Shown here piece by piece: positions 15,558 through 63,646 of a DNA stretch of 64,000 nt (positions are counted from its first letter, which is position 1; the number at the start of each line of letters is the position of its first letter). The position numbers and the translations under genes are program-made. Source of the DNA: a virus (Duplodnaviria > Heunggongvirae > Uroviricota > Caudoviricetes); IMG/VR virus record IMGVR_UViG_3300042400_000444; one strand, 5' to 3'. The notes beneath the pieces were generated by a model, which had not been told where the DNA came from, did not search any database, and saw only the letters and a list, made by a program, of their open reading frames with translations.

Positions 15558-15766
15558 CAGTACGTGGCATGCGAAACGAGCTCGCGGCACACACGTTAAA
15601 TAGGCAAAGGGGCGGACAAGTGGATGGCATGTTCTTATGTGAACAGAAAATACTTGTTATAATAAAGTACACTAATCGGCAACTAGGTCCCATGCAACGT
15701 GGACTATGTCTTAGGCGAGTAATTAGTGTACTTTATTATACGCATTCATATGAGTGCGTTAACAGT

Positions 15767-15849
15767 TTGTAGATAGTCCTGTTGGGCCAGGAGCCTAGTC
15801 ATGCTAGGTCAAGATCGCAACTTGTTGGGTTCGATTCCCAGTCTACAAT
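15767..15849 (+). tRNA. tRNA-like with apparent CAT anticodon and a long variable arm; no encoded CCA
   Basis: Perfect 7-bp acceptor TTGTAGA/TCTACAA. T-arm TTGGG-TTCGATT-CCCAG. Anticodon arm GCCTA-GTCATGC-TAGGT. 15-nt variable arm CAAG-ATCGCAA-CTTG. Confidence 0.45.
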
Positions 15850-15851
15850 TT

Positions 15852-15896
15852 AACAGGGCTCCTATCTATTGCCTACGGGGATAGCTTAGGAGTTAT
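15852..15896 (+). terminator. imperfect long hairpin followed by a T-rich tract (possible terminator or processing site)
   Basis: GCTCCTATCTAT...ATAGCTTAGGAG stem followed by TTATTTTATAA. Confidence 0.35.
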
Positions 15897-15903
15897 TTTA
15901 TAA

Positions 15904-15981
15904 CTCTCGTTCGCCTAGTCTGGTATGGCACTTGCTTTGGGAGCAAGAAGAACGTAGGTTCAAATCCTACACGAGAGACCA
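15904..15981 (+). tRNA. tRNA-Pro (anticodon TGG)
   Basis: Acceptor CTCTCGT/ACGAGAG, anticodon arm CTTGC-TTTGGGA-GCAAG, T-arm GTAGG-TTCAAAT-CCTAC, CCA. Confidence 0.7.
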
Positions 15982-16044
15982 ATTGTTACAACCGCTGATT
16001 TAAACTTAATTGCAGGCGGATAAAATGCTAAAGGAGGATTAATC

Positions 16045-16107
16045 ATGAACGAACATGATGTTGAGACATGGGGCTTTGGCTTCCCATCTTACGCAAGACA
16101 AAAATAG
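16045..16107 (+). CDS. 20-aa peptide ORF (MNEHDVETWGFGFPSYARQK) with a near-perfect Shine-Dalgarno sequence
   Basis: AAAGGAGG-N7-ATG. Convergent with, and 16 bp from, the 3' end of the class B radical-SAM gene. Confidence 0.3.
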   Translation: MNEHDVETWGFGFPSYARQK

Positions 16108-16122
16108 TACAGAGTAGTTAAG

Positions 16123-18192: not shown

Positions 18193-18213
18193 ATAAATTA
18201 AAGAGTGTATAAT
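18186..18213 (+). promoter_or_regulatory. sigma70-type promoter driving the start of the tRNA island
   Basis: TTGACA-N16-TATAAT. Confidence 0.55.
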
Positions 18214-18264
18214 AGCATTTGAAGTTAAGTAATACGCTCTTTAACAGTTTAGAAGTAGTACAAT

Positions 18265-18339
18265 ATCGCTATAGTTTATCGGTTAGAACAACAGGTTTTC
18301 ATCCTGTCGGGCGGAGTTCGACTCTCCGTAGCGATACCA
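18265..18339 (+). tRNA. tRNA-Glu (anticodon TTC)
   Basis: Acceptor ATCGCTA/TAGCGAT, anticodon arm ACAGG-TTTTCAT-CCTGT, T-arm CGGAG-TTCGACT-CTCCG, CCA. Confidence 0.7.
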
Positions 18340-19020
18340 TATTAAAGCACATTGTGAAGCACTATGTAAATAGTATCACGAGGGCCATGTAGTGAGAAGG
18401 CAGTAGCCAAGTCTGGGAAGGCAACTTGTTCGGGATGGAGTCTATAGGTAGGAAGTCATGATCCTACTGGACCGAGTCAGCAAGTCATACGTAGGTTCAA
18501 ATCCTACCTGCTAACATAATGTTTCACAGTGTGCTTTAATATGGTAGTATCAGTTATATGTGAGTCATACACGGGACTGGCGTAAGAAACACATTGGGGC
18601 TCGGAACCCCTGCACATATAACACAATGACACAAAGGTAGTTGCAATCTACCCGGCGTGGTCGCAGACGTATACGGTCTTTTCCGTTCAATTCGGAGTGT
18701 TATTGGATATACCATATAAAAACACATTCTTCAAAGAATACAGGGTTCAATTCCCGGCCGTTGATCACGGAACTGCCAAGGTGGTGAGTGTGTTTCTATA
18801 TGGTAGTAATGGCAGAGGCAAGGATTAATTACCCATGCTGAGCGACCTGGAAGCGGGTGGACAAACGTGACTGTGGGCCACTAAGGTAGTCAACATTACT
18901 CGCCATATAAAAGCACACTTAATGCGTAGGCCACGCAGAGTCATGGATGATAGCATTGCCCCGTAAGGAGCAGTGTCGGTGGGTTCAATTCCCGCATAGT
19001 GTGTTTCTATATGGTTATAT
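18336..19020 (+). repeat. non-coding block with three nested pairs of ~25-bp inverted repeats flanking short tRNA-fragment-like segments
   Basis: Arm consensus ACCATAT(A/T)AAA(G/A)CACA / TGTGTTTCTATATGGT. Plus-sense arms at 18336, 18708, 18903; reverse arms at 18520, 18781, 18993. No ORF of 60 aa or more on either strand. Confidence 0.5.
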
Positions 19021-19106
19021 GCTGTCGCGGTGCAGTAGGAGAGGCACGCTGGTCTGTAAAATCAGTCCCACTGGGTGAATAGGTTCGATTCCTATAGGCA
19101 GCACCA
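19021..19106 (+). tRNA. tRNA-Tyr (anticodon GTA), type II
   Basis: Acceptor GCTGTCG/AGGCAGC (6/7 pairs). Anticodon arm CTGGT-CTGTAAA-ATCAG. Long variable arm TCCCACTGGGTGA. T-arm ATAGG-TTCGATT-CCTAT. CCA. Confidence 0.65.
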
Positions 19107-19466
19107 AGAATTTGCAGAGCGCGGTGCTAGTCTAGCCTCGAGGCATAATCCAAGTTAGTTGCAACTAGCAACAGATTGTGAAAACTAGACAACAAGGTTC
19201 GATTCCTTACTGCATCTTATTTTATGTCGCAGTTCCAGTTACACTAATCTCTCAGTTAAAAGCTGTTAGTGTGTAAAGGATACGAGAAAGTCAACTTCTT
19301 CTGGGTAGACTGTGACGCCAAACACGAGGAGTGTTCACCTCTATAAAAACGAGCCAATATTTTTACACTAAAGGAAAAACAGTTATGAAGGTAACTAAAC
19401 TTTAGTGTCGTCTTTAATCCCATGTATGATTAAGGATAGGCACGTTAAACATCTTTATACATATAT

Positions 19467-19541
19467 GGGGGTATAATTCAATGGCTAGAATATCCGGCTT
19501 TTACCCGGACTATCAGAGTTCAAATCTCTGTGCCCTCACCA
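19467..19541 (+). tRNA. tRNA-Lys (anticodon TTT)
   Basis: Acceptor GGGGGTA/TGCCCTC with G-U pairs, anticodon arm TCCGG-CTTTTAC-CCGGA, T-arm CAGAG-TTCAAAT-CTCTG, CCA. Confidence 0.7.
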
Positions 19542-19655
19542 TAAGAAAGTATATTACTGACGCCTCAGAGAAGAGTTCCGGTAGCTCAGTATCGATTAAT
19601 AACTAAGTCAGCAGTTGGGTTCGCTGAATGTAGTGTACTTCCTTATGGTATCAAT

Positions 19656-19732
19656 GGTGACCGTAGCTCAGTTGGTAGAGTCCAGGATTGTGATTCCTGT
19701 TGTCGTGGGTTCGAGCCCCATCGGTCACCCCA
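19656..19732 (+). tRNA. tRNA-His (anticodon GTG) with extra 5' G(-1)
   Basis: G+GTGACCG/CGGTCAC, D-arm GCTC-AGTTGGTA-GAGT, anticodon arm CAGGA-TTGTGAT-TCCTG, CCA. Confidence 0.75.
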
Positions 19733-19790
19733 AGTTTTAATATGGCTTCCGTCCGTAGAATACTGCTTGCAGTCGGCTCGGAAGTTCTTT

Positions 19791-19868
19791 GGCACTTTAG
19801 CATAGCTGGCTTAATGCGCTACCCTGTCACGGTAGAGATCACGGATTCGAATTCCGTAAGTGTCGCCA
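19791..19868 (+). tRNA. tRNA-Asp (anticodon GTC)
   Basis: Acceptor GGCACTT/AAGTGTC, anticodon arm CTACC-CTGTCAC-GGTAG, T-arm ACGGA-TTCGAAT-TCCGT, CCA. Confidence 0.75.
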
Positions 19869-19874
19869 ACTTAT

Positions 19875-19948
19875 TCCGGTGTAGTATAATGGCAGTGCGA
19901 CGGTCTCCAAAACCGTTAGTGGGGGTTCGATTCCCTCCACCGGAGCCA
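19875..19948 (+). tRNA. tRNA-Trp (anticodon CCA)
   Basis: Acceptor TCCGGTG/CACCGGA, anticodon arm ACGGT-CTCCAAA-ACCGT, T-loop TTCGATT, CCA. Confidence 0.7.
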
Positions 19949-19962
19949 GTTTCAAATAGTGG

Positions 19963-19991
19963 TTGACAGCAAATATCAAAAATGCTACACT
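19963..19991 (+). promoter_or_regulatory. sigma70-type promoter inside the tRNA island
   Basis: TTGACA-N17-TACACT. Confidence 0.5.
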
Positions 19992-20021
19992 ATATAGATA
20001 GTAACAAATAAGTAAATGGAA

Positions 20022-20074
20022 GAAAGCCGTAACAATATGTATTCGAGGTTAGGAGAGTACGGCAAACCGTCCAA
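20022..20074 (+). ncRNA. conserved 52-nt structured element, copy 1 (second copy at 23301)
   Basis: GAAAGCcGTAACAaTATGTATTCGAGGTTAGGAGAGTACgGCAAACCG. The GCCGTA/TACGGC stem covaries with GCTGTA/TACAGC in copy 2. Could alternatively encode a 14-15-aa peptide MYSRLGEY(G/S)KP. Confidence 0.4.
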
Positions 20075-20168
20075 GGGTAGCTGATGCCTGTGGTGCAACT
20101 CCACCGTTGAAATCAGTCATGATTCTGCACATGATAACAGGCCTGTATTTGGCCGCAGAACTTTTATC

Positions 20169-20242
20169 GCGGTGGTGGGCTAATTGGCAAGCCGTAGGGC
20201 TCATAACCCTGAGACGAGGTTCGAATCCTCCGACCGCAACCA
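20169..20242 (+). tRNA. tRNA with CAT anticodon (Met/Ile2 class), slightly non-canonical
   Basis: D-arm GGCT-AATTGGCA-AGCC, anticodon arm TAGGG-CTCATAA-CCCTG, T-loop TTCGAAT. Acceptor GCGGTGG/CGACCGC has one G-G mismatch. 3' ACCA. Confidence 0.5.
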
Positions 20243-20260
20243 AATACACAGGGGAATAAC

Positions 20261-20428
20261 ATGGCAATTAAAAAAGCAAACTCAATGACTACACGTACAG
20301 GCAAACCTAGACTAGGTCCACTGAATTTAACCCAACTAAATACATTGTTGGATAAAACTAGCAAAGGTAAAGATAAAGCAAAACTCCGTAATAGAATTGC
20401 TGTATTGGAATCACGCTTAGTTAAATAA
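20261..20428 (+). CDS. small basic protein (55 aa)
   Basis: RBS CAGGGGAATAACATG. K/R-rich. Confidence 0.35.
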   Translation: MAIKKANSMTTRTGKPRLGPLNLTQLNTLLDKTSKGKDKAKLRNRIAVLESRLVK

Positions 20429-20434
20429 GTTTTT

Positions 20435-20519
20435 GCCGGGTTGCGCCGAATGGGATGGCACCTGACTTGTAATCAGGCTTCGTAAGATAGAGAGTGTTCG
20501 ATTCACTCACCCGGCACCA
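20435..20519 (+). tRNA. type-II-architecture tRNA (long variable arm, 3-bp D-stem) with apparent TGT (Thr) anticodon
   Basis: Acceptor GCCGGGT/ACCCGGC perfect. Anticodon arm CCTGA-CTTGTAA-TCAGG. Variable arm CTTCGTAAGATAGA. T-arm GAGTG-TTCGATT-CACTC. CCA. 85 nt. Confidence 0.55.
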
Positions 20520-20524
20520 GTAAT

Positions 20525-20599
20525 GCCCAGTTAGCAGAGTGGTAATGCGCCTCACTTGTAATGAGGATATCGGCGGTTCGATTCCGTCACTGGGCACCA
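20525..20599 (+). tRNA. tRNA-Thr (anticodon TGT)
   Basis: Acceptor GCCCAGT/ACTGGGC, anticodon arm CCTCA-CTTGTAA-TGAGG, T-arm GGCGG-TTCGATT-CCGTC, CCA. Confidence 0.7.
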
Positions 20600-20607
20600 A
20601 GTATTAA

Positions 20608-20692
20608 GCCTCTTTGGTGGAATTGGTATACACGTTGGTCTTAGAAGCCAATGCTGAAAGGCTTGAGAGTTCGAGTCTCTCAGGGGGCACCA
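20608..20692 (+). tRNA. tRNA-Leu (anticodon TAG), type II
   Basis: Acceptor GCCTCTT/AGGGGGC (G-U pairs), anticodon loop CTTAGAA, long variable arm, T-arm GAGAG-TTCGAGT-CTCTC, CCA. Confidence 0.65.
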
Positions 20693-20749
20693 AAAAATTT
20701 TATAGAGTAAAGTCTGATCGGTAAATACCCGTACAACGGAGATAAATTT

Positions 20750-21493
20750 ATGTTTGAATGGTATTGGGCGTTTGTATTCGGGTATATAGTACATACTATA
20801 ACAGTAATTGTAGTTTCAATTTTCCTGCATCGAATGTATGCACATAAGCACTTGTTATCCACGCCGGCATTTGATACAATGAGTCGAATTTGGTTATGGA
20901 TGGTAGGCGCATATTGGCCTAAAATTGCAAGAATATTTGCAGCAGTGCATAGAAAGCACCATGCTATGCCGGACACACTAGATGATCCACATACACCATG
21001 GATATATTCATGCCGTGAATTATTATTTCCTACGACAGACAGGGAAAAAGGCAAAGCATATTACATGCCGCCTGAAGAAAGAGATAGTATTGCAGGTGAT
21101 GTACCGGCATTCGATGATAAGTTGGATATATTCTTAATGAAGTATCTACCATACAGTAAGATACCATTGGTATTAGTATTCTTAACGTTATTTTCATGGC
21201 AAGGTGCTATAATTGGGTTTGTGTGGTTAACTATATCTCGGTACAGCGGAAGATTACATAATTGCGTATCGCACAAATATGGATATAGATGGCAACCAGC
21301 AAAAACAGAAGGTGACCGTTCAGTAAACTGCTTACCGATTGGGTTAGTATTCGGCGGTGAGGAATTAGGAGCCAATCATCATGATTATCCAGATTTGGTT
21401 AACTTTGCAATTAAGTGGTACGAATTTGATACAGGGTGGTATGTTGTTAAAGTATTAGAATTTTTTAAATTAGTAAAAATTGTTAAATCTTAA
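20750..21493 (+). CDS. membrane fatty-acid desaturase (stearoyl-CoA desaturase-like), paralogue 1
   Basis: His boxes HRMYAH, HRKHH(AMPD), NHHDYP. Hydrophobic N-terminal segments. Confidence 0.65.
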   Translation: MFEWYWAFVFGYIVHTITVIVVSIFLHRMYAHKHLLSTPAFDTMSRIWLWMVGAYWPKIARIFAAVHRKHHAMPDTLDDPHTPWIYSCRELLFPTTDREKGKAYYMPPEERDSIAGDVPAFDDKLDIFLMKYLPYSKIPLVLVFLTLFSWQGAIIGFVWLTISRYSGRLHNCVSHKYGYRWQPAKTEGDRSVNCLPIGLVFGGEELGANHHDYPDLVNFAIKWYEFDTGWYVVKVLEFFKLVKIVKS

Positions 21494-21638
21494 AGAAAAA
21501 ATTGCGAGTATGGTGGAATTGGTATACACAGTAAATGGTTGGAAATACCAATGGGTCAGCAAATAAAGGTAAACCCAAAAGTGAAGAGCATAAGAAAAAG
21601 ATTGCTGAATCAATAAAACAAAAATATGCTACAAGAAA

Positions 21639-21723
21639 TGCTCCGATGGCGTAATTGGTAGCCGCAATGGACTTAAAATTCATTATCGAAAGGTGTCCCG
21701 GTTCGACTCCGGGTCGGAGCACC
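21639..21723 (+). tRNA. tRNA-Leu (anticodon TAA), type II
   Basis: Acceptor GCTCCGA/TCGGAGC, anticodon arm ATGGA-CTTAAAA-TTCAT, long variable arm, T-arm CCCGG-TTCGACT-CCGGG, CCA. Confidence 0.7.
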
Positions 21724-21823
21724 AGAGTTTAGTTGCACAGTAAAAACACGAGTGATGGTGTGCGGGTTCAAATCCCGGTGGGGAGGTAAAAGCTCCCGGC
21801 TGCACTCAGACTAACAGTTTTAA

Positions 21824-21897
21824 AGCGGGATTAGTTTAATGGCAAAACTGGAGTTTTCCAAACTTCTGTCATCAGTTCGATTCTGATATCCCGCTCC
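21824..21897 (+). tRNA. tRNA-Gly (anticodon TCC)
   Basis: Acceptor GCGGGAT/ATCCCGC, D-arm GTTT-AATGGCA-AAAC, anticodon loop TTTCCAA, T-arm ATCAG-TTCGATT-CTGAT, CCA. Confidence 0.75.
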
Positions 21898-22173
21898 AAA
21901 CACTAGCTTTACACTTTGCGCTTTATCGAAAGTGGGTAATTGGCAATACCATAGCGCCAGGGCACACACGATGGTCTAGACCATGCCACAAGTCCCATTG
22001 CCGGGAGCCTTGAAAGTATCGTGGGTTATTTGTTGTTATATCCAAAAGATAACAGCTGGACAGGGTAACTACTCAGTTCTGGGCTAGGTGGTGCTAGTAG
22101 CAGAACACTTTACACTACAGCAATGTAGACGAACAGTATATATTATAGATTTACAAATTAGATAAGAAGTAAA

Positions 22174-22249
22174 TGGGGGTGTAGCTCATTTGGGAGAGCG
22201 CCTGCTTTGCAAGCAGGATGTAGCAAGTTCGATCCTTGTCACCTCCACC
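22174..22249 (+). tRNA. tRNA-Ala (anticodon TGC)
   Basis: Acceptor GGGGGTG/CACCTCC with G3-U70, D-arm GCTC-ATTTGGGA-GAGC, anticodon arm CCTGC-TTTGCAA-GCAGG, CCA. Confidence 0.75.
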
Positions 22250-22255
22250 ATATTA

Positions 22256-22331
22256 TAGGAGATTAGCTCATTTGGTAGAGCAGTGCCCTTACAAGGCAAA
22301 GGCGACTGGATCGTAACCAGTATCTCCTACC
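22256..22331 (+). tRNA. tRNA-Val (anticodon TAC), unusual T-loop ATCGTAA
   Basis: Acceptor AGGAGAT/ATCTCCT, D-arm GCTC-ATTTGGTA-GAGC, anticodon loop CTTACAA, T-arm ACTGG-ATCGTAA-CCAGT, CCA. Confidence 0.6.
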
Positions 22332-22345
22332 AGTTTTAAGTTTTA

Positions 22346-22424
22346 TTCCGCAGAATCCGAGCTAGGCGCACGGACTTGACTGTTAATCAATGATTAGCTG
22401 GGTTCGAATCCCAGATGCGGAGCC
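22346..22424 (+). tRNA. tRNA-Asn (anticodon GTT)
   Basis: Acceptor TCCGCAG/ATGCGGA (6/7), D-stem TCCG/CGGA, anticodon loop CTGTTAA, T-arm CTGGG-TTCGAAT-CCCAG, CCA. Confidence 0.6.
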
Positions 22425-22482
22425 AATATTATTTGGTAGAGCAATAGACTGAGCTAAATAAACATATAACGGAGTTATTGAT

Positions 22483-23106
22483 ATGTTTACTTGTGTGTAT
22501 TGTTCTAAAGTATGTAAAAATGATAATAGTCATCGAAATCATGAAAGACAATGTCCTAAAAATCTTAACAGGATTTATAAAAATGGAATGACTGGTAAAA
22601 CGGCATGGAACAAAGGACTTACAGTTGCTACTGATGAACGAGTGGCTAAAAATGCTATAGCAATTAAAGCAAATGCTAAAGAAATTGGTAAATGTAAAGA
22701 TCCAGAGAAGGAAGTATTACGTAGACAAAAATTGTCAATCGCTGCAAAAAGAAGCGGATTTGGCGGATACAGAGAAAACGCAGGACGCAGTAAAAAATTT
22801 AGAGTGTTAGATTCTTACGGTAAAGAAACAGTTTTACAAAGCACATATGAATTAAAGTGTAGTGAAATATTAAATGAGTTGGGCATTGAATGGATTCGAC
22901 CCAAAGCATTAAAATATGATAATAAAAATTATTTTGCGGACTTTTACTTACCTAAGATAGATATGTATCTTGATCCTAAGAATAGTTATAAAGCAAGATT
23001 AGATTTAGAAAAAATAAACAAAGTTATAGAACAAAATAATGTTAAAGTTGTAATCTTATTAGAAGAACACCTAACATTAGAACATATTAAACAGCTCTGT
23101 AGTTAA
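22483..23106 (+). CDS. putative homing-endonuclease-like protein (zinc finger plus NUMOD-like segment)
   Basis: N-terminal CVYCSKVCKNDNSHRNHERQC zinc finger. GKTAWNKGLT is NUMOD3-like. AT-rich gene inside the tRNA island. Its 3' end overlaps the start of tRNA-Ile. Confidence 0.4.
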   Translation: MFTCVYCSKVCKNDNSHRNHERQCPKNLNRIYKNGMTGKTAWNKGLTVATDERVAKNAIAIKANAKEIGKCKDPEKEVLRRQKLSIAAKRSGFGGYRENAGRSKKFRVLDSYGKETVLQSTYELKCSEILNELGIEWIRPKALKYDNKNYFADFYLPKIDMYLDPKNSYKARLDLEKINKVIEQNNVKVVILLEEHLTLEHIKQLCS

Positions 23107-23166
23107 ATGGTATAACGGACGCTTGATAAGCGTTTATTACAAGTTCAATTCTTGTCAGAGCTACCA
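23093..23166 (+). tRNA. tRNA-Ile (anticodon GAT)
   Basis: Acceptor AGCTCTG/CAGAGCT, D-arm GTTA-AATGGTA-TAAC, anticodon arm GACGC-TTGATAA-GCGTT, T-arm ACAAG-TTCAATT-CTTGT, CCA. First 14 nt lie inside the upstream CDS. Confidence 0.7.
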
Positions 23167-23300
23167 AGTATTCCAACCGCATCACGTTTAGGGTGAAGTA
23201 GGGCGTGTTAACAAAACCCTGTAAGATCAAAAATACCTATCAAGGCAAGGAGGAATCACAGCGCAAGCTGAAGACGACTGCGGTGACTTGCTAAAAGGGA

Positions 23301-23353
23301 GAAAGCTGTAACATTATGTATTCGAGGTTAGGAGAGTACAGCAAACCGCCCAA
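23301..23353 (+). ncRNA. conserved 52-nt structured element, copy 2
   Basis: GAAAGCtGTAACAtTATGTATTCGAGGTTAGGAGAGTACaGCAAACCG. Compensatory C>T/G>A relative to copy 1 preserves the 6-bp stem. Confidence 0.4.
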
Positions 23354-23476
23354 CTCATAATACACCAGACCTCAACCTCGCAAGAGACAATTCTGGTTCC
23401 GCTGACGCGAAAAGAGGATGGGCTGCGCTCACGGGGTTTGTTAGGTTCCTGTCACATGAATACCTAACACTTATTT

Positions 23477-23564
23477 GGAGGATTGGCTGAGTGGTTTAAG
23501 GCAGCAGTCTTGAAAACTGTCGAGCTGAAAGGCTCCGTGAGTTCGAATCCCACATCCTCCGCCA
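23477..23564 (+). tRNA. tRNA-Ser (anticodon TGA), type II
   Basis: Acceptor GGAGGAT/ATCCTCC, anticodon arm GCAGT-CTTGAAA-ACTGT, variable arm CGAGC-TGAAAG-GCTCCG, CCA. Confidence 0.65.
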
Positions 23565-23569
23565 AATAC

Positions 23570-23598
23570 TTGACAACGTTCTAAAACGGTGTTATAAT
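23570..23598 (+). promoter_or_regulatory. sigma70-type promoter
   Basis: TTGACA-N17-TATAAT. Confidence 0.55.
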
Positions 23599-23618
23599 AG
23601 TTTTATAGTAAGAAATTA

Positions 23619-23712
23619 GGAGAGCTGGCCGAGTGGTCGAAGGCACTTCCCTGCTAAGGAAGCATACGGGCTTAACCCTGTATCGAGGGTTCGAATCTCA
23701 CCGCTTCCGCCA
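23619..23712 (+). tRNA. tRNA-Ser(GCT)-like with non-pairing acceptor stem (possible pseudogene)
   Basis: D-arm and anticodon arm CTTCC-CTGCTAA-GGAAG, long variable arm, T-loop TTCGAAT. The 5' end GGAGAGC does not pair with the 3' end CGCTTCC. Ends GCCA. Confidence 0.35.
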
Positions 23713-23730
23713 ATTTTATTAAGGACTGAT

Positions 23731-24147
23731 ATGTTGCGCACTGTGGTATTATCGTTGGCACTTTTGTTTACAATTACAGCACATGCTGAAGATTGGGCAG
23801 TAGTAACTGATTCGGGTGATGGAGTACGTTTAATTGCTGATGTTGAATCAGTAAAGGTTAAAGAATACAAAAAAGGTACTAAAAAAGGTACAGGTATATT
23901 TGTCAATATGCAATATGTAAACACCGACCTTATATTTGTATCTGCTATTGATGTTGAAGAATGCTTATTAAAGCAACGTGGCACATTAATTAATGCTTAC
24001 CCAAGCGGTGAATCCAATACATACTTTTGGGACATTAGCGGTGGCAAGATGTATGATGCACAAGGGCAATGGTTATGCGGTGCTGTATATGGCATACTTA
24101 AAAATAATAAAAAACAACCAAAACCTAAACCTAAAGTAACAATGTAA
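23731..24147 (+). CDS. secreted hypothetical protein (signal peptide)
   Basis: N-terminal MLRTVVLSLALLFTITAHA signal. 138 aa. KPKPK C-terminal tail. Confidence 0.45.
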   Translation: MLRTVVLSLALLFTITAHAEDWAVVTDSGDGVRLIADVESVKVKEYKKGTKKGTGIFVNMQYVNTDLIFVSAIDVEECLLKQRGTLINAYPSGESNTYFWDISGGKMYDAQGQWLCGAVYGILKNNKKQPKPKPKVTM

Positions 24148-24157
24148 TATAGCATTC

Positions 24158-24247
24158 GGAGAGTGGGCCGGACGGTAAGGCACCACCCTGCTAAGGTGTA
24201 CAACTCTTTAAACAGTTGACAGGGTTCGACTCCCTGACTCTCCGCCA
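24158..24247 (+). tRNA. tRNA-Ser (anticodon GCT), type II
   Basis: Acceptor GGAGAGT/ACTCTCC perfect, anticodon loop CTGCTAA, variable arm CAACT...AGTTG, T-arm AGGG-TTCGACT-CCCT, CCA. Confidence 0.7.
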
Positions 24248-24301
24248 TAAAATTGAGGATAACTAACCCTCAACTAAGTATGTATAATACACGAGAATTT
24301 A

Positions 24302-25642
24302 ATGAACGATAATAAAAAAATATGGCCTATTAAATCAGAGACATCGTGCTATTTAAAATGGTCATGGAGCACTATTTTCCTCACTAAAGGTACCACAGCC
24401 AGTTGTCATCGAACTGTACATTCAGATATTGATATTAATAATTTTAATAATTTTCATAATACTCCAAAAAAATTAGATGATCGAAAGCGTATGCTAGCTG
24501 GCAACTGGCCGGAAGAGAGCGAGTCTGATAAATTTGGAATTCCTGGATGTACTTATTGTAAAGATATAGAAGATCATGGTGGCACAAGTGATCGTACAGT
24601 GCAATTACGTCATCTCGAAGCAATGAGTGCAACACAAAATAATATATTGCCCGTAGAATTATTAACAGATCCAACAGCAACGGAAGTAACTCCTACAATA
24701 ATTGAAGTTTATTTTAATAATGTGTGCAACATGGCTTGTTTGTACTGCGGCCCTCATTTTAGTACTATGTGGGAAGAAGAAAATCGGAGATTTGGCATTA
24801 CAGAAGACGACGGTATATTAAATACACCGTTATGGAAACGTAATCCTACTCAATATAGTACGTTGCGTGATGGACTATTTACTTGGTTACGTGAACACGG
24901 AGATAAGATTTGGAACTTCGGTATGTTAGGTGGCGAACCTTTCTTCCAACAAGAATTTGACATGGTATTAGATCATTGGGAAAATTATCCTAATCCAAAT
25001 TTACTATTAACTATAGTTAGTAATTTAAAAATAGAACATACTCGATTTGTTGGTTACATTCAACGATTAAAACGTATGGTAGAAACTGGTAAGATTAAAA
25101 AATTAAATCTTAGTGCTAGTTTAGATTGTTGGGGACCCCCAGCAGAATATATTAGATGGGGATTAAATCTAATAGAGTGGGAGAAGAATTTTAATTATCT
25201 AGCACAAGCGGGGTTCGATGAATGGATTGTTTTGAATGTCAATATTACCATCACTCCATTAAGCATAAGGACATTGCCGGACTTGATTTATAAATTAAAC
25301 GAATTGGATAAACTTAGAGACCCAACACGTCATATTTGTATTAGTTTTATGCACGTTAATTCGCCGACACAACTAAACCCATTATGGTTTGGTGCTGGTG
25401 TATTTACAGAAGATATGATTAAGGTAGTGGATGCAATGCCGACAGGAACACAATACCAGCGTGATTATAAAGAATATATGCAAGGTATTGCTAACAGTAT
25501 AGAACAGACTCCACGAAATCCTGCCGCTATTCTTATGTTAGAAACATATCTAAATGAAATGGACCAGCGCAGGGGAACACATTGGCCAGAATTATTTCCG
25601 TGGCTAGTGAGACAATTTGAGTTAGCCCATTCGGAAATATAA
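24302..25642 (+). CDS. radical SAM enzyme (paralogue B)
   Basis: CNMACLYC is a CxxxCxxC motif. GGEPFF. N-terminal SCYLKW...ASCH motif shared with the ORF at 8818. 446 aa. Confidence 0.8.
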   Translation: MNDNKKIWPIKSETSCYLKWSWSTIFLTKGTTASCHRTVHSDIDINNFNNFHNTPKKLDDRKRMLAGNWPEESESDKFGIPGCTYCKDIEDHGGTSDRTVQLRHLEAMSATQNNILPVELLTDPTATEVTPTIIEVYFNNVCNMACLYCGPHFSTMWEEENRRFGITEDDGILNTPLWKRNPTQYSTLRDGLFTWLREHGDKIWNFGMLGGEPFFQQEFDMVLDHWENYPNPNLLLTIVSNLKIEHTRFVGYIQRLKRMVETGKIKKLNLSASLDCWGPPAEYIRWGLNLIEWEKNFNYLAQAGFDEWIVLNVNITITPLSIRTLPDLIYKLNELDKLRDPTRHICISFMHVNSPTQLNPLWFGAGVFTEDMIKVVDAMPTGTQYQRDYKEYMQGIANSIEQTPRNPAAILMLETYLNEMDQRRGTHWPELFPWLVRQFELAHSEI

Positions 25643-25672
25643 CACAATTCATTATTAAACACAGGAGCATTA

Positions 25673-25777
25673 TATGTTATTTCTAATCTTAAAAAGCGCA
25701 GTAGTTGTTGCAATAGCATTTTGCGCATTAATTCTAGAAGTATTCATATTAGTGTGGATCGCAAACAAACTAAAATA
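25673..25777 (+). CDS. 34-aa hydrophobic peptide (single predicted TM helix) directly downstream of radical SAM paralogue B
   Basis: RBS ACAGGAGCATTATATG. MLFLILKSAVVVAIAFCALILEVFILVWIANKLK. Confidence 0.3.
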
Positions 25778-25785
25778 GTTTAATT

Positions 25786-25876
25786 GCTCCTGTAGTTTAA
25801 CGGTAAAACAGCGGGCTTATACCCCGTAACAACAGATAATTGGCTGATCAAGGTTCGAATCCTACCACTTCCGCCA
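25786..25876 (+). tRNA. tRNA-like (apparent TAT anticodon, 21-nt variable region) with non-pairing acceptor ends
   Basis: D-arm GTTT-AACGGTA-AAAC, anticodon arm GCGGG-CTTATAC-CCCGT, T-loop TTCGAAT. The 3' tail CACTTCCGCCA has no complementary 5' strand. Confidence 0.3.
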
Positions 25877-26004
25877 AAACAACCGAGAACGCCTCTTAAC
25901 AATGCGCAACATCAAACGTGGATTTACACGTGACGCTATAGGACGCTATAGTCTACGGTCCTCCGGGAGGATAACTCCCAACTTATTCTAAAAGTATCAG
26001 TAAT

Positions 26005-26080
26005 ACCCTCTTCGCCAAGTTGGTAAGGCAACAGGTTTTGATCCTGTCATTCGGTGGTTCGAGTCCATCAGGGGGTGCCA
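26005..26080 (+). tRNA. tRNA-Gln (anticodon TTG)
   Basis: Acceptor ACCCTCT/AGGGGGT, anticodon arm ACAGG-TTTTGAT-CCTGT, T-arm GGTGG-TTCGAGT-CCATC, CCA. Confidence 0.65.
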
Positions 26081-26086
26081 AACAAT

Positions 26087-26163
26087 GTATGTGTGTAGCT
26101 GAATGGATAAGCTGCGGATTGCAACCCCGTATTATGCAGGTTCGACCCCTGTCACATACTCCA
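26087..26163 (+). tRNA. tRNA-Cys (anticodon GCA), probable
   Basis: Acceptor GTATGTG/CACATAC perfect, anticodon loop TTGCAAC, T-arm GCAGG-TTCGACC-CCTGT, CCA. Confidence 0.55.
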
Positions 26164-26173
26164 CTTTCAATAT

Positions 26174-26250
26174 AGAGATGTAGCATAGTGGCCTAATGCA
26201 CTTGCTTCATACGCAAGCTACCGTAGGTTCAAATCCTACCATCTCTACCA
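26174..26250 (+). tRNA. tRNA-Met (anticodon CAT)
   Basis: Acceptor AGAGATG/CATCTCT, D-arm GCAT-AGTGGCCTA-ATGC, anticodon arm CTTGC-TTCATAC-GCAAG, T-arm GTAGG-TTCAAAT-CCTAC, CCA. Confidence 0.75.
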
Positions 26251-26256
26251 AACAAT

Positions 26257-26326
26257 GCCCCCGCCGATGGACGGACTTTGGCCTTCGAAGCCGAAAGAAG
26301 CGGTTCGATACCGTTCGGGGGCTCCA
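26257..26326 (+). tRNA. tRNA-Arg (anticodon TCG) with reduced D-arm (70 nt)
   Basis: Acceptor GCCCCCG/CGGGGGC, anticodon arm TTGGC-CTTCGAA-GCCGA, T-arm AGCGG-TTCGATA-CCGTT, CCA. Confidence 0.5.
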
Positions 26327-26334
26327 ACAATTAT

Positions 26335-26458
26335 GTGCGGGTGCTGGAACAGGGATACAGCTCAGCGGCAGTTGAGGCAAAGGGTTCGAGTCCCTTGGAA
26401 GTTCGCAAGACTTTTAGTATGGTACTGTTGGAGGCTCGAGTCCTTCCTCGCACACCAA
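26335..26458 (+). tRNA. ~124-nt tRNA-like locus with a good acceptor stem and two T-arm-like motifs (candidate intron-containing or fused tRNA)
   Basis: Acceptor GTGCGGG/CTCGCAC pairs 7/7 with one G-U. 3' T-arm GGAGG-CTCGAGT-CCTTC. Internal AAGGG-TTCGAGT-CCCTT. CCA. Confidence 0.3.
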
Positions 26459-26463
26459 ATAAA

Positions 26464-26530
26464 ATGTTACTGCTCAGTAACATTTGCCGTCAAAACCGGC
26501 TAAATCAGTTCAAATGTTACTGAGCAGTAA
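26464..26530 (+). promoter_or_regulatory. two copies of an 18-20-bp dyad-symmetric site ATGTTACTG-NN-CAGTAACAT, centres ~50 bp apart
   Basis: 26464-26483 ATGTTACTGCTCAGTAACAT; 26514-26530 ATGTTACTGAGCAGTAA. Lies between a tRNA-like locus and tRNA-Gly. Confidence 0.4.
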
Positions 26531-26539
26531 GATTAAAAT

Positions 26540-26616
26540 GCGGGATTAGCTCAGCTTGGTAGAGCACGACGTTGCCAACGTCGTTGTCAGGAGTTCAAAT
26601 CTCCTATCCCGCTCCA
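26540..26616 (+). tRNA. tRNA-Gly (anticodon GCC)
   Basis: Acceptor GCGGGAT/ATCCCGC, D-arm GCTC-AGCTTGGTA-GAGC, anticodon arm CGACG-TTGCCAA-CGTCG, T-arm AGGAG-TTCAAAT-CTCCT, CCA. Confidence 0.8.
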
Positions 26617-26624
26617 AATTTCAA

Positions 26625-26653
26625 TTGACAAAATGTCAAAACGAATGTATAAT
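26625..26653 (+). promoter_or_regulatory. sigma70-type promoter
   Basis: TTGACA-N17-TATAAT. Confidence 0.55.
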
Positions 26654-26679
26654 ACACTTAATTAAAAAAGGAGGCTATT

Positions 26680-27078
26680 ATGTCTTACAACTATAAAGAA
26701 GTAGAATTTAACGAATTAAAAGGTAAAGTGTTGACAAGCGTAGTAGTCAACGAATACAACGATGAAATTGTGTTTAAAACTACAGACGGCGAAGTATATA
26801 CTTTGTATCACGCACAAGATTGTTGTGAGTCAGTAGAAATTGAATCTATCGTTGGTGACTTGTCTGACTTAGTTGGCGAAGAAATCTTACTGGCAGAAGA
26901 AGCACAAAACTTATTTGACTTGATTAAATCTGCAGGCGAAGTAGAAGAAGATGAATACGGTTCACACACATGGACATTTTATAAATTAGCAACTCGCAAA
27001 GGGTACGTTGACATCAGATGGTATGGTTCAAGCAACGGTTACTATTCAGAGGAAGTTTCTTTTAAAAGAGAGCAGTAA
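26680..27078 (+). CDS. hypothetical acidic protein
   Basis: RBS AAAGGAGGCTATTATG. 132 aa. Confidence 0.5.
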   Translation: MSYNYKEVEFNELKGKVLTSVVVNEYNDEIVFKTTDGEVYTLYHAQDCCESVEIESIVGDLSDLVGEEILLAEEAQNLFDLIKSAGEVEEDEYGSHTWTFYKLATRKGYVDIRWYGSSNGYYSEEVSFKREQ

Positions 27079-27079
27079 C

Positions 27080-27442
27080 ATGTCACACAGTGAATTAGAT
27101 TGGTTAGAATACAATGGGTGGGCAGGTCAGGATACTATTCCGCAACTTGCCCATGAAGCATTAGTACGATACTTTGTGCATGGCATGGAACCGGGTAGTT
27201 TTTTAACTGCTATGCTCGAGGGTGATTTGTTTACTGCGGCGTTTAAAGCAGACTTTGCAAACGCAGGAGCAATGGCAAAAATTGCTAAATGGATTGTACA
27301 TCATGCACCACACAATAGTTATGGTAATGCTGACATAGTTAAAAAATGGTGCAGTGACCCGACTATACGAGCAGACTTCGATAAGAAAGTGTTGTGGCAT
27401 TATTTACACACAGATGGAAAACCAAAAGTATATGACTTCTAA
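27080..27442 (+). CDS. hypothetical protein
   Basis: ATG at 27080 with RBS AAAGAGAGCAG. The six-frame ORF begins at 27008 and overlaps the upstream gene. Confidence 0.45.
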   Translation: MSHSELDWLEYNGWAGQDTIPQLAHEALVRYFVHGMEPGSFLTAMLEGDLFTAAFKADFANAGAMAKIAKWIVHHAPHNSYGNADIVKKWCSDPTIRADFDKKVLWHYLHTDGKPKVYDF

Positions 27443-27596
27443 ATTAAAACCGCAATGGATTAAAGATAAAGAAGCACTACAAACTATTAAGCCAGAAGAA
27501 CTTATCATTGTAGGAAAGATGGGAGTTGCTGGCGTAATAGATGGTAAACTTCCAAACGGTGAAGTGTACAATAGAAACATTAGAAAGAAACGATGA
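27354..27596 (+). CDS. hypothetical small protein (likely starts at internal ATG 27432)
   Basis: ORF overlapping the upstream gene. Basic C-terminus. Confidence 0.3.
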   Translation: MTRLYEQTSIRKCCGIIYTQMENQKYMTSKLKPQWIKDKEALQTIKPEELIIVGKMGVAGVIDGKLPNGEVYNRNIRKKR

Positions 27597-27835
27597 CATA
27601 CTATTGTGAGCTAAACAATGATGAGAATATAATACGCACAATGGGTGGACATAGAATAGTTGGGCGGTATGTAATAGTCGCCAGCCAATTCATTCCAACC
27701 GGGCTTACGTATAGTGCAAAAAACATTAATGATGGTATGCGATGGTACAAGCATCGAGAGAAAGCGAATTCGGACTTAACAGAAAATGAATGCAAAGCAC
27801 TAACTTTTCAAATATTAAAAAGTGAGACTTGGTGA
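27593..27835 (+). CDS. hypothetical protein
   Basis: 80-aa ORF, ATGA-coupled. Confidence 0.35.
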   Translation: MTYYCELNNDENIIRTMGGHRIVGRYVIVASQFIPTGLTYSAKNINDGMRWYKHREKANSDLTENECKALTFQILKSETW

Positions 27836-28218
27836 TGGAATTTACAATCGACCCAGAGTACTTAACAAGCGTAACTATTCATAAAGAGTGGAACACGTAT
27901 ACACACAATGGTCGCGTACCTACAGCAGAAGAACTTATTTTAATTATTCAAGGCAAGGGCGAGTGTTCGACTACAAGTTCAGAAGATCATCCAGAGTTTG
28001 CTAAGTTGCGCGAGCAGTTGGGTGCAGATGGATATATTCATATCCAGCGAGGTTGGTGGAATGGTGATGAGGTCTTAAAACCGTTTAAACTTAACGGAAG
28101 AAAATTTAAAGTAGGAGCACAGTTTAGCAGCGGTAGTGCAATGGGTACACACCTTGCTGTAAGAGCTAAACACCCCGAGTTATATAAGGATGAATACGAT
28201 GATGAAACCGTGGATTGA
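27829..28218 (+). CDS. hypothetical protein
   Basis: 129-aa ORF. Confidence 0.45.
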   Translation: MVMEFTIDPEYLTSVTIHKEWNTYTHNGRVPTAEELILIIQGKGECSTTSSEDHPEFAKLREQLGADGYIHIQRGWWNGDEVLKPFKLNGRKFKVGAQFSSGSAMGTHLAVRAKHPELYKDEYDDETVD

Positions 28219-28684
28219 AAACGTTAGTATGAAAGACATACAAGTAGGCGAGCACTTTGATGCTGGCACTAATTCTATGCTTATTCAAATTGTTGACCCT
28301 ATTACTCTTTTTCCAACACCAAAGCATACATTTAAAGAAGTGCATCAGTTTAAATTTTTAGATGCAGAAGACTCTGATGTTGCAGAGTACGGTGAAGAGC
28401 CATTGATTAGCGATCAGCAAGCAGAAGCAATTTTGCAGTTACTACAACGTGCGCTGGCCAACCATATGAACATTGTTGTACATTGTCACGCTGGTTTATG
28501 TCGTAGTGGTGCAGTAGTAGAGATTGGTGTTATGATGGGCTTTAGAGATACTGAAAAGTTTCGTAGTCCCAACTTACGGGTTAAACACAAATTAATGAAG
28601 TTGCTCGGGCTAATACACGACCCAGACGAGGAACATAACTGGCGTGATGATTATAGACATCACTTAACTAAAAGCAATATGTAA
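28190..28684 (+). CDS. protein tyrosine / dual-specificity phosphatase
   Basis: VHCHAGLCRSG is an HCx5R(S/T) P-loop signature. Confidence 0.65.
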   Translation: MNTMMKPWIENVSMKDIQVGEHFDAGTNSMLIQIVDPITLFPTPKHTFKEVHQFKFLDAEDSDVAEYGEEPLISDQQAEAILQLLQRALANHMNIVVHCHAGLCRSGAVVEIGVMMGFRDTEKFRSPNLRVKHKLMKLLGLIHDPDEEHNWRDDYRHHLTKSNM

Positions 28685-28695
28685 AGGAGTAGTAC

Positions 28696-28890
28696 ATGAT
28701 TAAGTTATCCCCAACGGGTAAAATATCCAAAAATGCTAACAAGGAACTTTGTTTAGATACTAAGTTTACTGTTAGCATTGATGTACGTGACGTAACGTAT
28801 GCTAACATTGATGAAAAGATTGCTGAGCTTATTGCAGAGGCACACAAAGTCAAACAAGTACTCGAACAAAACATAGTAACATCAAATTAA
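28696..28890 (+). CDS. hypothetical small protein
   Basis: RBS AAAGGAGTAGTACATG. Confidence 0.4.
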   Translation: MIKLSPTGKISKNANKELCLDTKFTVSIDVRDVTYANIDEKIAELIAEAHKVKQVLEQNIVTSN

Positions 28891-28898
28891 AAGAATAC

Positions 28899-28974
28899 GC
28901 AACCTTAGCTCATCTGGTAGAGCACCTGCTTGAAGCGCAGGGTGTGCTTGGTTCAAGTCCAAGAGGTTGCACCA
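28899..28974 (+). tRNA. tRNA-Phe (anticodon GAA)
   Basis: Acceptor GCAACCT/AGGTTGC, D-arm GCTC-ATCTGGTA-GAGC, anticodon arm CCTGC-TTGAAGC-GCAGG, T-arm CTTGG-TTCAAGT-CCAAG, CCA. Confidence 0.8.
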
Positions 28975-61329: not shown

Positions 61330-61715
61330 ATGAGCTATTCAGCAGCGGTCTTGGACCATTATGAAAATCCAAGAAATGTAGGATCTTTAGATAAGGAGAA
61401 TGCGCAAGTTGGGACCGGAATCGTCGGTGCCCCAGCTTGCGGATGACAGGTGACGTCATGAAGTTACAAATTCAAGTCGAAGATGGTATTATAATCGATG
61501 CAAAGTTTAAAACATACGGATGTGGGTCAGCAATTGCTAGTTCTAGCCTAGTAACAGAATTGCTTAAAGGTATGACATTAGATGAAGCATACACAATTAA
61601 AAACTCAGCAATAGCAGAAGAACTTGCATTACCCCCAGTTAAGATACATTGTAGTGTATTAGCAGAAGATGCTATTAAAGCGGCTATTGCAGATTATAGG
61701 AATAAACAAGGATAA
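61330..61715 (+). pseudogene. iscU: iscU (Fe-S cluster scaffold) interrupted by an 8-nt insertion causing a frameshift inside the GAPACGD motif
   Basis: Frame 1 reads MSYSAAVLDHYENPRNVGSLDKENAQVGTGIVGAPACG-stop. The other frame continues DVMKLQIQVEDGIIIDAKFKTYGCGSAIASSSLVTE...LPPVKIHCSVLAEDAIKAAIADY, near-identical to E. coli IscU. RBS GGAGGTATTATATG. Confidence 0.6.
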
Positions 61716-61861
61716 GAAATGGCTTGCCCATTACACAATACAGAATATCAACAATATTGTTGTTTACATGATAAACATCAAGAGGATAATACATTTGAAC
61801 AATGCGAATATCAACAGGCATGTAGCTATCTTATTAACAATCAACAAGGGGTCGAAATAGA

Positions 61862-62017
61862 ATGGAAGAGGAAATCGAAAGCCCGTGCGTCGGCGCATGC
61901 GGATTATTTGATGGAGTTTGCCGCGGTTGTGGTAGAACAACAGACGAAGTAGTAGAATGGTACAATTTTACAAACGAACAAAAACAAGCAGTATTAGATA
62001 GGATATTCAATGATTAG
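61862..62017 (+). CDS. small Cys-rich ORF with a DUF1289-like motif (putative Fe-S protein)
   Basis: MEEEIESPCVGACGLFDGVCRGCGRTTDEVVEWYNFTNEQKQAVLDRIFND fits C.G.C...C.GC.RT..E...W. Stop overlaps the iscA start. Alternative overlapping ORF 61719-61952 not excluded. Confidence 0.35.
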   Translation: MEEEIESPCVGACGLFDGVCRGCGRTTDEVVEWYNFTNEQKQAVLDRIFND

Positions 62018-62333
62018 TTTAACTGAACTTGCTGCAGAGAAGATTAAGAAAAGCATTACTGCTCGCGGAGCAAACACGCTGGGTATTAAGATTGGCATCA
62101 AAACTGCTGGCTGTAGTGGTATGAGTTATGTTCTTGAGTTTGTTGATCAACTAACCGCAGATGATATTGAATATAAATGTCATGATGTTAGTATTTTTAC
62201 AACACCAAAAGACTTGGTGTATGTTGATGGCCTAAAAATGGATTGGAAACGTGAAGGGCTTAATGAGGGATTTGAATTTATTAATCCAAATGCTACCGGC
62301 GAATGTGGCTGTGGTGAAAGTTTTACAGTTTAG
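62010..62333 (+). CDS. iscA: A-type Fe-S carrier (IscA/ErpA/HesB family)
   Basis: GCSGMSY ... NPNATGECGCGESF with the three conserved Cys. Confidence 0.7.
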   Translation: MISLTELAAEKIKKSITARGANTLGIKIGIKTAGCSGMSYVLEFVDQLTADDIEYKCHDVSIFTTPKDLVYVDGLKMDWKREGLNEGFEFINPNATGECGCGESFTV

Positions 62334-62368: not shown

Positions 62369-63052
62369 ATGCTTATACAAAAATACGACTATACACCCAT
62401 CAATCGCCAGAGCGTGGATGGAAAAAGACTTTACAGTTTACCAGATGGTAGTAAAGTTCCTTCAGTAACAACAATTCTCGACAAGACAAAGTCCGCTGAA
62501 AGTAAAGCGGCACTTGATAACTGGCGAAAAAGTGTTGGCGAGAAAAAAGCTCAAGAGATTACTACAGAAGCCGCCAATCGCGGAACACGTATGCACAAAT
62601 GGTTAGAAGATTATGTGCAAAACAATCGTGTTATGGGCGAGCCTGGCACTAATCCTTACAGTATACAAAGTCACAAGATGGCGCAGACAATTGTAGAACA
62701 GGGCTTAGTACATGTAGACGAGGTATGGGGCATTGAAGTGCCGTTATATGTATCCGGACTGTATGCCGGTACAACTGACGCTTGTGGTGTACATAAAGGT
62801 AAACCAGCTATTTTAGACTACAAACAGACCAATAAACCGAAGAAAACAGAGTGGGTTCAGGACTATTTCCTCCAGTTATGTGCTTATGGACTAGCACACA
62901 ACGAAACACACGGAACTGACATTAAACAAGGTGTTATTCTAATGTGCAGTCAAGACTTCCAGTATCAGACATGGACAGTCGAAGGCGAGGAATGGGATAT
63001 GTGGACAGAAAAATGGTTGAAAAGAGTGGAACAGTATTATAATCTCAGCTAA
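62369..63052 (+). CDS. hypothetical protein, possible PD-(D/E)xK-family nuclease
   Basis: GTTDACGVHKGKPAILDYKQT is a D...(D/E)xK-like pattern. 227 aa. Confidence 0.4.
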   Translation: MLIQKYDYTPINRQSVDGKRLYSLPDGSKVPSVTTILDKTKSAESKAALDNWRKSVGEKKAQEITTEAANRGTRMHKWLEDYVQNNRVMGEPGTNPYSIQSHKMAQTIVEQGLVHVDEVWGIEVPLYVSGLYAGTTDACGVHKGKPAILDYKQTNKPKKTEWVQDYFLQLCAYGLAHNETHGTDIKQGVILMCSQDFQYQTWTVEGEEWDMWTEKWLKRVEQYYNLS

Positions 63053-63079: not shown

Positions 63080-63646
63080 ATGGCTGTAGTACAAATTTCA
63101 AAAATACAAATCCGTAGAGGATTACAAGAAGATTTACCACAATTAGCATCGGCTGAGTTGGGCTGGTCAATTGATGAACGTAGATTATTCATTGGCAACG
63201 GTACATTAGCAGAAGGTGCTCCTACTACCGGCCGTACAGAAATTCTCACTGCACAATCTATATTCTCAGAATTGGCAGCTATTACAGTACTGCAAGGTAA
63301 TGTTGCTAATATAGAAGCCGATGTTACTACTATACATTCTGATATCGCAAGTTTACAAGCAAACGGAGCGGTCGGTTCAACAACACTGTATGATGATGTA
63401 ACTTCTGGTAATATTGGAATGGTTGCCTCACCGACTATAATGTCGTATGCTATTACTAGAAACAATGAACGTCGAGTCGGCACACTTAGCGGTGCAAATT
63501 TTGGATCAACTACAGTAACCGATGATGATTATACAGAAACTGCTGATGTTGGAGTGACGTTTGAATTTACAGGTAATATGTTTCAATATACAACAACAAG
63601 CACAGGATATGATGCAGAATTAAAGTTCTTCTTAACTATATTTTGA
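63080..63646 (+). CDS. hypothetical protein
   Basis: RBS CGAGGTTACTAAAATG. 188 aa. T/S/G-rich. Confidence 0.45.
   Translation: MAVVQISKIQIRRGLQEDLPQLASAELGWSIDERRLFIGNGTLAEGAPTTGRTEILTAQSIFSELAAITVLQGNVANIEADVTTIHSDIASLQANGAVGSTTLYDDVTSGNIGMVASPTIMSYAITRNNERRVGTLSGANFGSTTVTDDDYTETADVGVTFEFTGNMFQYTTTSTGYDAELKFFLTIF

Follow-up and report, generated by a model that had tools for sequence, protein, structure and literature searches.

To our knowledge, nearly all known cases of natural programmed translational bypassing come from gene 60 of bacteriophage T4 and its relatives and from the byps of yeast mitochondria, and in a non-exhaustive literature search we know of no earlier natural programmed bypass site with a short gap (3 to 5 nt). 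[quoted passage not shown] A 5′ stem-loop lies just upstream of the takeoff codon, and pairing within the exiting mRNA has been proposed to push the ribosome forward (bioRxiv 10.1101/2024.12.09.627546). Bypass cassettes of ∼50 nt that are homologous to that of gene 60 are spread by the MobA homing-endonuclease element; they have matched Gly or Asp codons, and their protein-level and structural elements are conserved between clades (bioRxiv 10.1101/2022.08.31.505936). The tRNA hopping and stop hopping of Escherichia coli were described in artificial constructs where a stretch of ∼9 nt is decoded as one amino acid (Weiss et al. 1987; O'Connor et al. 1989, as cited in 10.1101/2024.12.09.627546).

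Here, we describe a phage iscU gene that is interrupted at the codon for Gly38 and is probably expressed by programmed short-distance translational bypassing (stop hopping), a reading that draws on comparative sequence analysis. The site has three features of described bypass sites, namely, matched codons (Gly-Gly in 53/54), a stop after takeoff (50/54), and a 5′ structure, but not the ∼50-nt gap with an A-site stem-loop and a mini-Shine-Dalgarno sequence (mini-SD).

The phage isc module and its split iscU

The window (the whole 64,000-nt stretch of DNA that was analyzed, IMG/VR record IMGVR_UViG_3300042400_000444) has a low GC content (38%) and is part of a double-stranded DNA phage genome. 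It carries genes for a terminase large subunit, a DnaB-like helicase, virion structural proteins, and radical SAM proteins, and the presence of the first three beside the isc genes bears out the view, taken in a first-pass annotation made from the sequence, that the isc module is phage-borne. The terminase is 54% identical to those of the ∼287-kb Pseudomonas jumbo phages, e.g., PA5oct, and the nearest record (G001; 114 kb, estimated to be 33% complete) implies a jumbo genome for the window phage. The module comprises the following features.

61330..61446, + strand: N-terminal reading frame of iscU, 38 aa (MSYSAAVLDHY...VGAPACG), ending at an in-frame TGA; matches Pfam NifU_N positions 2-35
61452..61715, + strand: C-terminal part of iscU in the +2 frame (DVMKLQ...TYGCG...LPPVKIHC...RNKQG, then stop); matches NifU_N
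61862..62017, + strand: small Cys-motif protein (CxGxC...CxGC), DUF1289 (Pfam E value, 3.8e-16)
62010..62333, + strand: iscA (Fe-S_biosyn, C-terminal CGCG; Pfam E value, 6.7e-18)

At the interruption, the window reads GCC CCA GCT TGC GGA TGA CAG GTG ACG TCA TGA AG (61429-61470). The upstream iscU open reading frame (ORF) (61330-61446) translates to MSYSAAVLDHYENPRNVGSLDKENAQVGTGIVGAPACG and then meets the TGA at 61444-61446, while the downstream frame, at an offset of +2 (= -1), extends over 61437-61715 and reads ...MTGDVMKLQIQVEDG...KIHCSVLAEDAIKAAIADYRNKQG. IscU continues in this +2 frame from DVMKLQIQVEDG... through KIHCSVLAEDAIKAAIADYRNKQG, with the stop at 61715. Comparison with canonical relatives (e.g., L002, ...TGC GGT GAT GTA ATG...) shows the extra letters to be the 8 nt GGATGACA, inserted at Gly38 (61441-61451; TGC GGA TGA CA GGT GAC). 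With a Gly codon on either side, these 8 nt can be placed in more than one way, and the first-pass placement of ATGACAGG after TGCGG is equivalent. Both the sequence and the canonical relatives agree with the earlier description of an iscU split by an 8-nt insert in its most conserved motif.

The N-terminal part corresponds to positions 2-35 of the NifU_N profile (E value, 1.7e-10) and the C-terminal part to positions 34-124 (E value, 1.9e-35). The two parts tile the profile without loss or gain of a residue where they meet and therefore make up one complete domain, as had been supposed when the two frames were read as a single IscU. The C-terminal part of the window gene holds Cys63, the LPPVK HscA motif, His105, and Cys106; together with Cys37, these residues are kept by the window gene and by 45 to 48 of 48 insert-bearing relatives.

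Downstream of the split gene, the Cys-motif ORF and the intact iscA that had been named by eye are both matched by Pfam. The two differ in constancy, with iscA adjoining iscU in 75 of 80 relatives' loci and DUF1289 lying between iscU and iscA in only 13 of the 80; by this distribution, DUF1289 is a variable addition to the isc module. Neither iscS nor hscBA was found near the window iscU, where the cluster consists of iscU-(DUF1289)-iscA only. The IscU scaffold and the IscA carrier would supplement host Fe-S cluster assembly in infection, and phage IscU would likely use the IscS and the HscA/HscB of the host, the latter because the LPPVK HscA-binding motif is retained. Directly 3′ of iscA lies a PD-(D/E)XK nuclease-like ORF (62369-63052, + strand), and two genes past iscA there is an ORF with an Mtd_N (major tropism determinant N-terminal) domain (63080-63646, + strand), which may be the target of a diversity-generating retroelement.

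The module had been linked to three radical SAM enzymes and FeoA encoded by the same phage. A domain scan supports part of this link, confirming two radical SAM proteins; neither a third one nor FeoA turned up in the proteins scanned.

8818-10020, + strand: radical SAM protein
16123-18192, - strand: radical SAM protein fused to a B12-binding domain

It is plausible that the phage requires an Fe-S scaffold of its own for its radical SAM enzymes.

Recurrence, structure, and history of the insert

The junction found in the window is repeated identically in a record from another sample (L001, IMGVR_UViG_3300042485_000771)/L084 and in G001/L099. Logan assemblies from three lake-metagenome runs of different studies (X1-X3) span 61441-61451 with no indel relative to the window, and a 151-nt metatranscriptome contig (X17; 61403-61553) also spans the insert site with no indel. 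The insert is present in DNA and in transcript. Independent sequence across the site had been called for in the first-pass annotation, and the other-sample contig, the three runs, and the RNA contig all keep the insert.

Inserts at exactly the Gly38 codon were also found in several of the best 80 of 597 viral-contig relatives. An IMG/VR pattern search was anchored on the flanks only (CCN GCN TGY GG ... GAY GTN ATG), with the insert content unconstrained; pooled with constrained IMG/VR searches, it gives a total of ∼54 distinct phage IscU sites with an insert of 8 nt (n = 17), 7 nt (n = 35), or 6 nt (n = 2). The resumed frame is +2, +1, or 0 depending on insert length. The layout of the site, using the terms of the proposed hop, is as follows for the window and its relatives.

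61403..61441, + strand: stem-loop with an outer stem of ∼11 bp, an inner stem of 4 bp, and a 5-nt loop (consensus)
61441..61443, + strand: putative takeoff codon GGA (Gly38 of IscU); a Gly codon in all 54 insert-bearing relatives
61444..61446, + strand: TGA stop directly after takeoff, with C as the next base (UGA-C); a stop in 50/54 relatives
61447..61448, + strand: 2-nt spacer (CA); 0 to 2 nt and variable in sequence in relatives
61449..61451, + strand: putative landing codon GGT (Gly); GGA, GGT, or GGC in relatives, with Gly in 53/54

The stop directly 3′ of the takeoff Gly codon is TGA at 35 sites, TAA at 11, and TAG at 4, and the remaining 4 of the 54 carry TGT (Cys) in its place. The Gly landing codon lies 0 to 2 nt past the stop, and the canonical frame then resumes at Asp39, so that the coding gap amounts to 3 to 5 nt (3 nt in the 6-nt forms). 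Examples of the junctions are GGA/UGA CA/GGU in the window, GGA/UGA C/GGA in L035, GGU/UAA C/GGA in L019, and GGU/UAG/GGC in L252. [quoted passage not shown] Two of the genes with a Cys codon where others have the stop, L224 and L231, read GGT TGT T GGA, and L236 reads GGT TGT TGA C GAY, with no Gly landing codon and with a stop one codon later. Variants of this type may be degenerate forms, or they may indicate that parts of the layout are dispensable. No hop-like site besides that of iscU was found in the window. None of the few cultured phages with iscU (Acinetobacter phage MD-2021a, phage C48C1) shows an insert, as judged from matches starting at the canonical Gly38.

The last base of the 3′ arm of the stem-loop is the first base of the takeoff codon, which places the structure on the exit side of a ribosome paused at takeoff. 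In the window, the minimum free energy (MFE) over 120 nt is -38. A strong stem-loop in the 48 nt ending at takeoff is present in all 48 insert-bearing genes and lacking in 65 of 69 canonical genes; the mean ΔG of these 48 nt is -25 kcal/mol in the former versus -13.5 kcal/mol in the latter, and the mean MFE z-score of a 120-nt window is -2.2 versus -0.2. In an alignment of 25 insert-bearing sequences (A1), the stem-loop is 97.5% paired, while slid controls reach 32 to 44%. Compensatory two-sided pair changes were counted in 25 cells, compared with 7.1 ± 2.0 in shuffled data (0 of 500 shuffles reach 25). Each of the 6 independent contrasts that fall on supported branches shows a joint change of hairpin and insert (sign test, P = 0.031), these six being the only contrasts on which the phylogenetic test rests. 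The residues encoded over the hairpin are (A/P/S/T)(Q/H)VGTG in insert-bearing lineages versus D/S-rich in canonical ones. On this comparative evidence, the stem-loop co-evolves with the insert. Among the relatives compared, no conserved structure was found 3′ of the site, where a barrier to forward slippage would lie. Four canonical IscU genes (L036, L043, L060, and L067) have a strong upstream hairpin and no insert, and they may represent lineages after loss of the insert or before its gain.

A tree of IscU DNA (117 rows), built after removal of the insert, implies at least 10 changes of insert state (gains or losses). Within the clade that shares an insert identical to that of the window, the C-terminal part shows a dN/dS of ∼0.03 to 0.07 at a dS of 0.4 to 0.65, e.g., a dN of 0.03 and a dS of 0.65 between the window and L107 and a dN of 0.02 and a dS of 0.39 between the window and L091. 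The low dN/dS within this identical-insert clade indicates that selection has maintained the protein of the resumed frame ever since the insert appeared. Both parts are intact in 47 of 48 unique insert-bearing genes. The sole non-intact gene, L153 (IMGVR_UViG_3300032560_000730), has a second in-frame insert of 6 nt (CCG TAA CTA GTT) that places a stop between Pro and Val of ...LPP/VK without matched codons; this second insert is apparently a real disruption or an error.

Two further ideas were considered and rejected. Template switching at the nearby hairpin was one candidate source of the insert, and the inserts are, by inspection, not copies of the hairpin arms. An alternative genetic code was the other; the standard code fits the window genes, and reassignment of TGA gives no gene lengthening.

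Proposed hop and alternative explanations

Recent pseudogenization, a sequencing or assembly error, and a recoding or regulatory event had been put forward as possible explanations of the split scaffold. Recoding is the best supported of the three, and the stop/Gly layout in three frames suggests that its form would be a frame-independent ribosomal hop and not a frameshift. In the mechanism that we propose, the ribosome would decode Gly38 at GGA (61441-61443) and then have the UGA stop in its A site, the peptidyl-tRNA-Gly would release this first Gly codon and re-pair at the landing GGU (61449-61451), and elongation would continue in the +2 frame from GAC (Asp39). The predicted product has the canonical junction ...GAPACGDVMK... 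(exactly, ...VGAPACGDVMKLQ...), with no residue gained or lost. Terminating ribosomes would release the 38-aa N-terminal fragment, and the amount of IscU scaffold would be set by the efficiency of bypass, which could be very low. Three aids to the hop are suggested by the site. The stem-loop, forming on the exiting mRNA, would push the ribosome forward by 7 to 8 nt (or 6); the UGA-C context, found in most forms, would weaken termination; and the matched Gly codons would permit re-pairing. UGA-C is a weak termination context. A single mechanism would serve inserts of 6, 7, and 8 nt because a Gly-tRNA hop gives exactly the canonical IscU in all of them, and, as far as the sequences can tell, only such a frame-independent hop yields normal IscU for all three lengths.

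In E. coli, GGA and GGU are read by different tRNA-Gly species, and re-pairing from GGA to GGU would need a wobble mismatch. The window has 27 tRNA genes (14015-28974), which include readers of both the takeoff and the landing codons.

21825-21898: tRNA-Gly(UCC)
26540-26616: tRNA-Gly(GCC)

An expanded anticodon loop favoring hopping was considered for the phage tRNA-Gly(UCC) and rejected, the loop having by inspection the normal 7 nt. The benefit to the phage is a matter of speculation, and it may lie in limiting or timing the supply of IscU for the radical SAM enzymes. More tentatively still, and with doubt outweighing confidence, the hop site might be repeatedly installed and removed together with its exit-side stem-loop as a tunable or condition-dependent switch of the Fe-S scaffold, perhaps acting through the phage tRNA-Gly or the translation state of the host. 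The repeated gain and loss of the insert could also reflect an unstable, mutation-prone site that is purged by selection and not a recoding signal that is kept.

The last point leads to the alternative that survives best, although we consider it unlikely, namely, that the insert kills iscU at a mutational hotspot, where slippage of 6 to 8 nt occurs between Gly codons, with the phage using the IscU of its host and the remnant gene decaying. The changes of insert state on the tree, at least 10 in number, fit a mutation-prone site, the direct repeats of Gly codons that flank every insert would permit precise deletion by slippage, and L153 has acquired a second in-frame stop. However, the C-terminal part has been under strong purifying selection after the shared insertion (dN/dS of ∼0.03 to 0.07 at a dS of up to 0.65), the insert-bearing genes are otherwise intact in 47 of 48 cases, and mutation alone would not explain why, across three frames, the stop persists in 50/54 and the Gly landing codon in 53/54. 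The co-evolving stem-loop tracks the insert as well. Purifying selection, intact parts, and co-evolving structure thus speak against the recent pseudogenization envisaged in the first-pass annotation.

Alternatively, IscU may be made in two pieces, with termination followed by reinitiation at the overlapping ATG (61443; in 8-nt forms) or at Met41, and with fragments that assemble or act alone. The window does have an ATG at 61443 that overlaps the stop (GG-ATGA), a classic arrangement of translational coupling, and the ATG of Met41 lies three codons past the landing codon in every form. We nevertheless find this quite improbable. In the 7-nt and 6-nt forms, the nearest ATG of the resumed frame is that of Met41, and initiation there would yield a fragment without Cys37 (one of three conserved cluster ligands) and without the N-terminal strands; from the structure of IscU, such a fragment is unlikely to work as a scaffold. 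The stem-loop lies 5′ of the stop and not over the downstream start, which fits coupling poorly, and the exact canonical junction is accounted for by the hop.

Conventional recoding has a similarly slender chance of being the explanation. It would comprise a -1 frameshift in the 8-nt forms, a +1 frameshift in the 7-nt forms, and stop readthrough in the 6-nt forms, with 1 to 3 extra residues after Gly38. For each length class taken singly, a known mechanism would in principle suffice, and the weak UGA-C stop context is that of the +1 frameshift site of prfB. Against this, three mechanisms would be needed at one codon among related phages, no heptamer slippery site is visible, and the constant Gly landing codon (53/54) would be left without a role, as merely an extra residue. 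A sequencing or assembly error in the window contig, finally, has practically no chance of being correct and is excluded by the identical insert in L001/L084 and G001/L099, by the X1-X3 assemblies and the RNA contig X17 that span the site with no indel, and by the ∼50 further relatives that bear related inserts.

If the proposed hop is true, the iscU site would be a second, independent example of bypassing in phages and would bear on the generality of the mechanism. The compact stem-loop that co-evolves with the hop site would make the drive by exit-side pairing testable, and gene callers would be labeling these phage IscUs as broken though the protein may be full-length. If the switch reading is true as well, the sites would form a class of short-gap bypass that occurs naturally and is labile in evolution, separate from the 50-nt cassettes of gene 60.

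Comparison with known systems

Judged by its sequence, the window IscU is a bona fide IscU/NifU_N protein, and the operon is a reduced phage isc module. Like the IscU/NifU_N protein of E. coli, it has the full domain, here laid out over two frames, with Cys37, Cys63, His105, Cys106, and LPPVK. As in bacterial isc operons, IscA (Fe-S_biosyn) is encoded 3′ of IscU; unlike them, the module is phage-borne, has no adjacent iscS, iscR, or hscBA, includes DUF1289 in some lineages, and has an iscU split by an insert.

The closest natural counterpart, T4 gene 60, resembles the iscU site in its Gly takeoff codon, the stop immediately 3′ of it, and the resumption after a Gly landing codon to give an uninterrupted protein, which in the case of iscU is predicted. 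Both are phage genes for a conserved protein, and both have an exit-side (5′) stem-loop near takeoff, the iscU hairpin occupying the same place relative to the takeoff codon. The two differ in the size of the gap, which is 47 to 50 nt in the topoisomerase subunit gene and 3 to 5 nt in iscU. The iscU insert has no room for an A-site stem-loop and lacks a mini-SD positioned 6 nt before the landing codon, and the A-site stem-loop, nascent-peptide signal, and mini-SD of gene 60 are not applicable as such because the iscU gap is far shorter. The N-terminus of IscU is in any case conserved for its function, which would mask a nascent-peptide signal in sequence comparisons. In addition, the takeoff and landing codons of iscU do not in every case match exactly or by wobble (GGA and GGU in the window clade), and the insert contains no remnant of the MobA mobile element.

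The gene 60/MobA cassettes resemble the iscU inserts in their occurrence in many phage lineages at one codon of a conserved gene, with a stop after takeoff. However, the cassettes are ∼50 nt long and are borne by a mobile element, while the iscU inserts are 6 to 8 nt long, have no such element, and have apparently been gained and lost many times. Because the long gap, the A-site stem-loop, the mini-SD, and the mobile element are all absent, the iscU insert does not belong to the gene 60/MobA cassette family.

The stop hopping of E. coli, as far as it is described in the preprint that cites it, comes closest in scale. It moves a peptidyl-tRNA-Gly over a stop to a nearby matched codon, as proposed here for iscU, and the 6-nt forms of L252 and L256 (GGU UAG GGC) would be the natural counterpart of the 9-nt constructs. 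Those constructs, in the same account, are of low efficiency and have no stimulatory structure, whereas the iscU site is natural and recurrent and is accompanied by a stem-loop that co-evolves with it.
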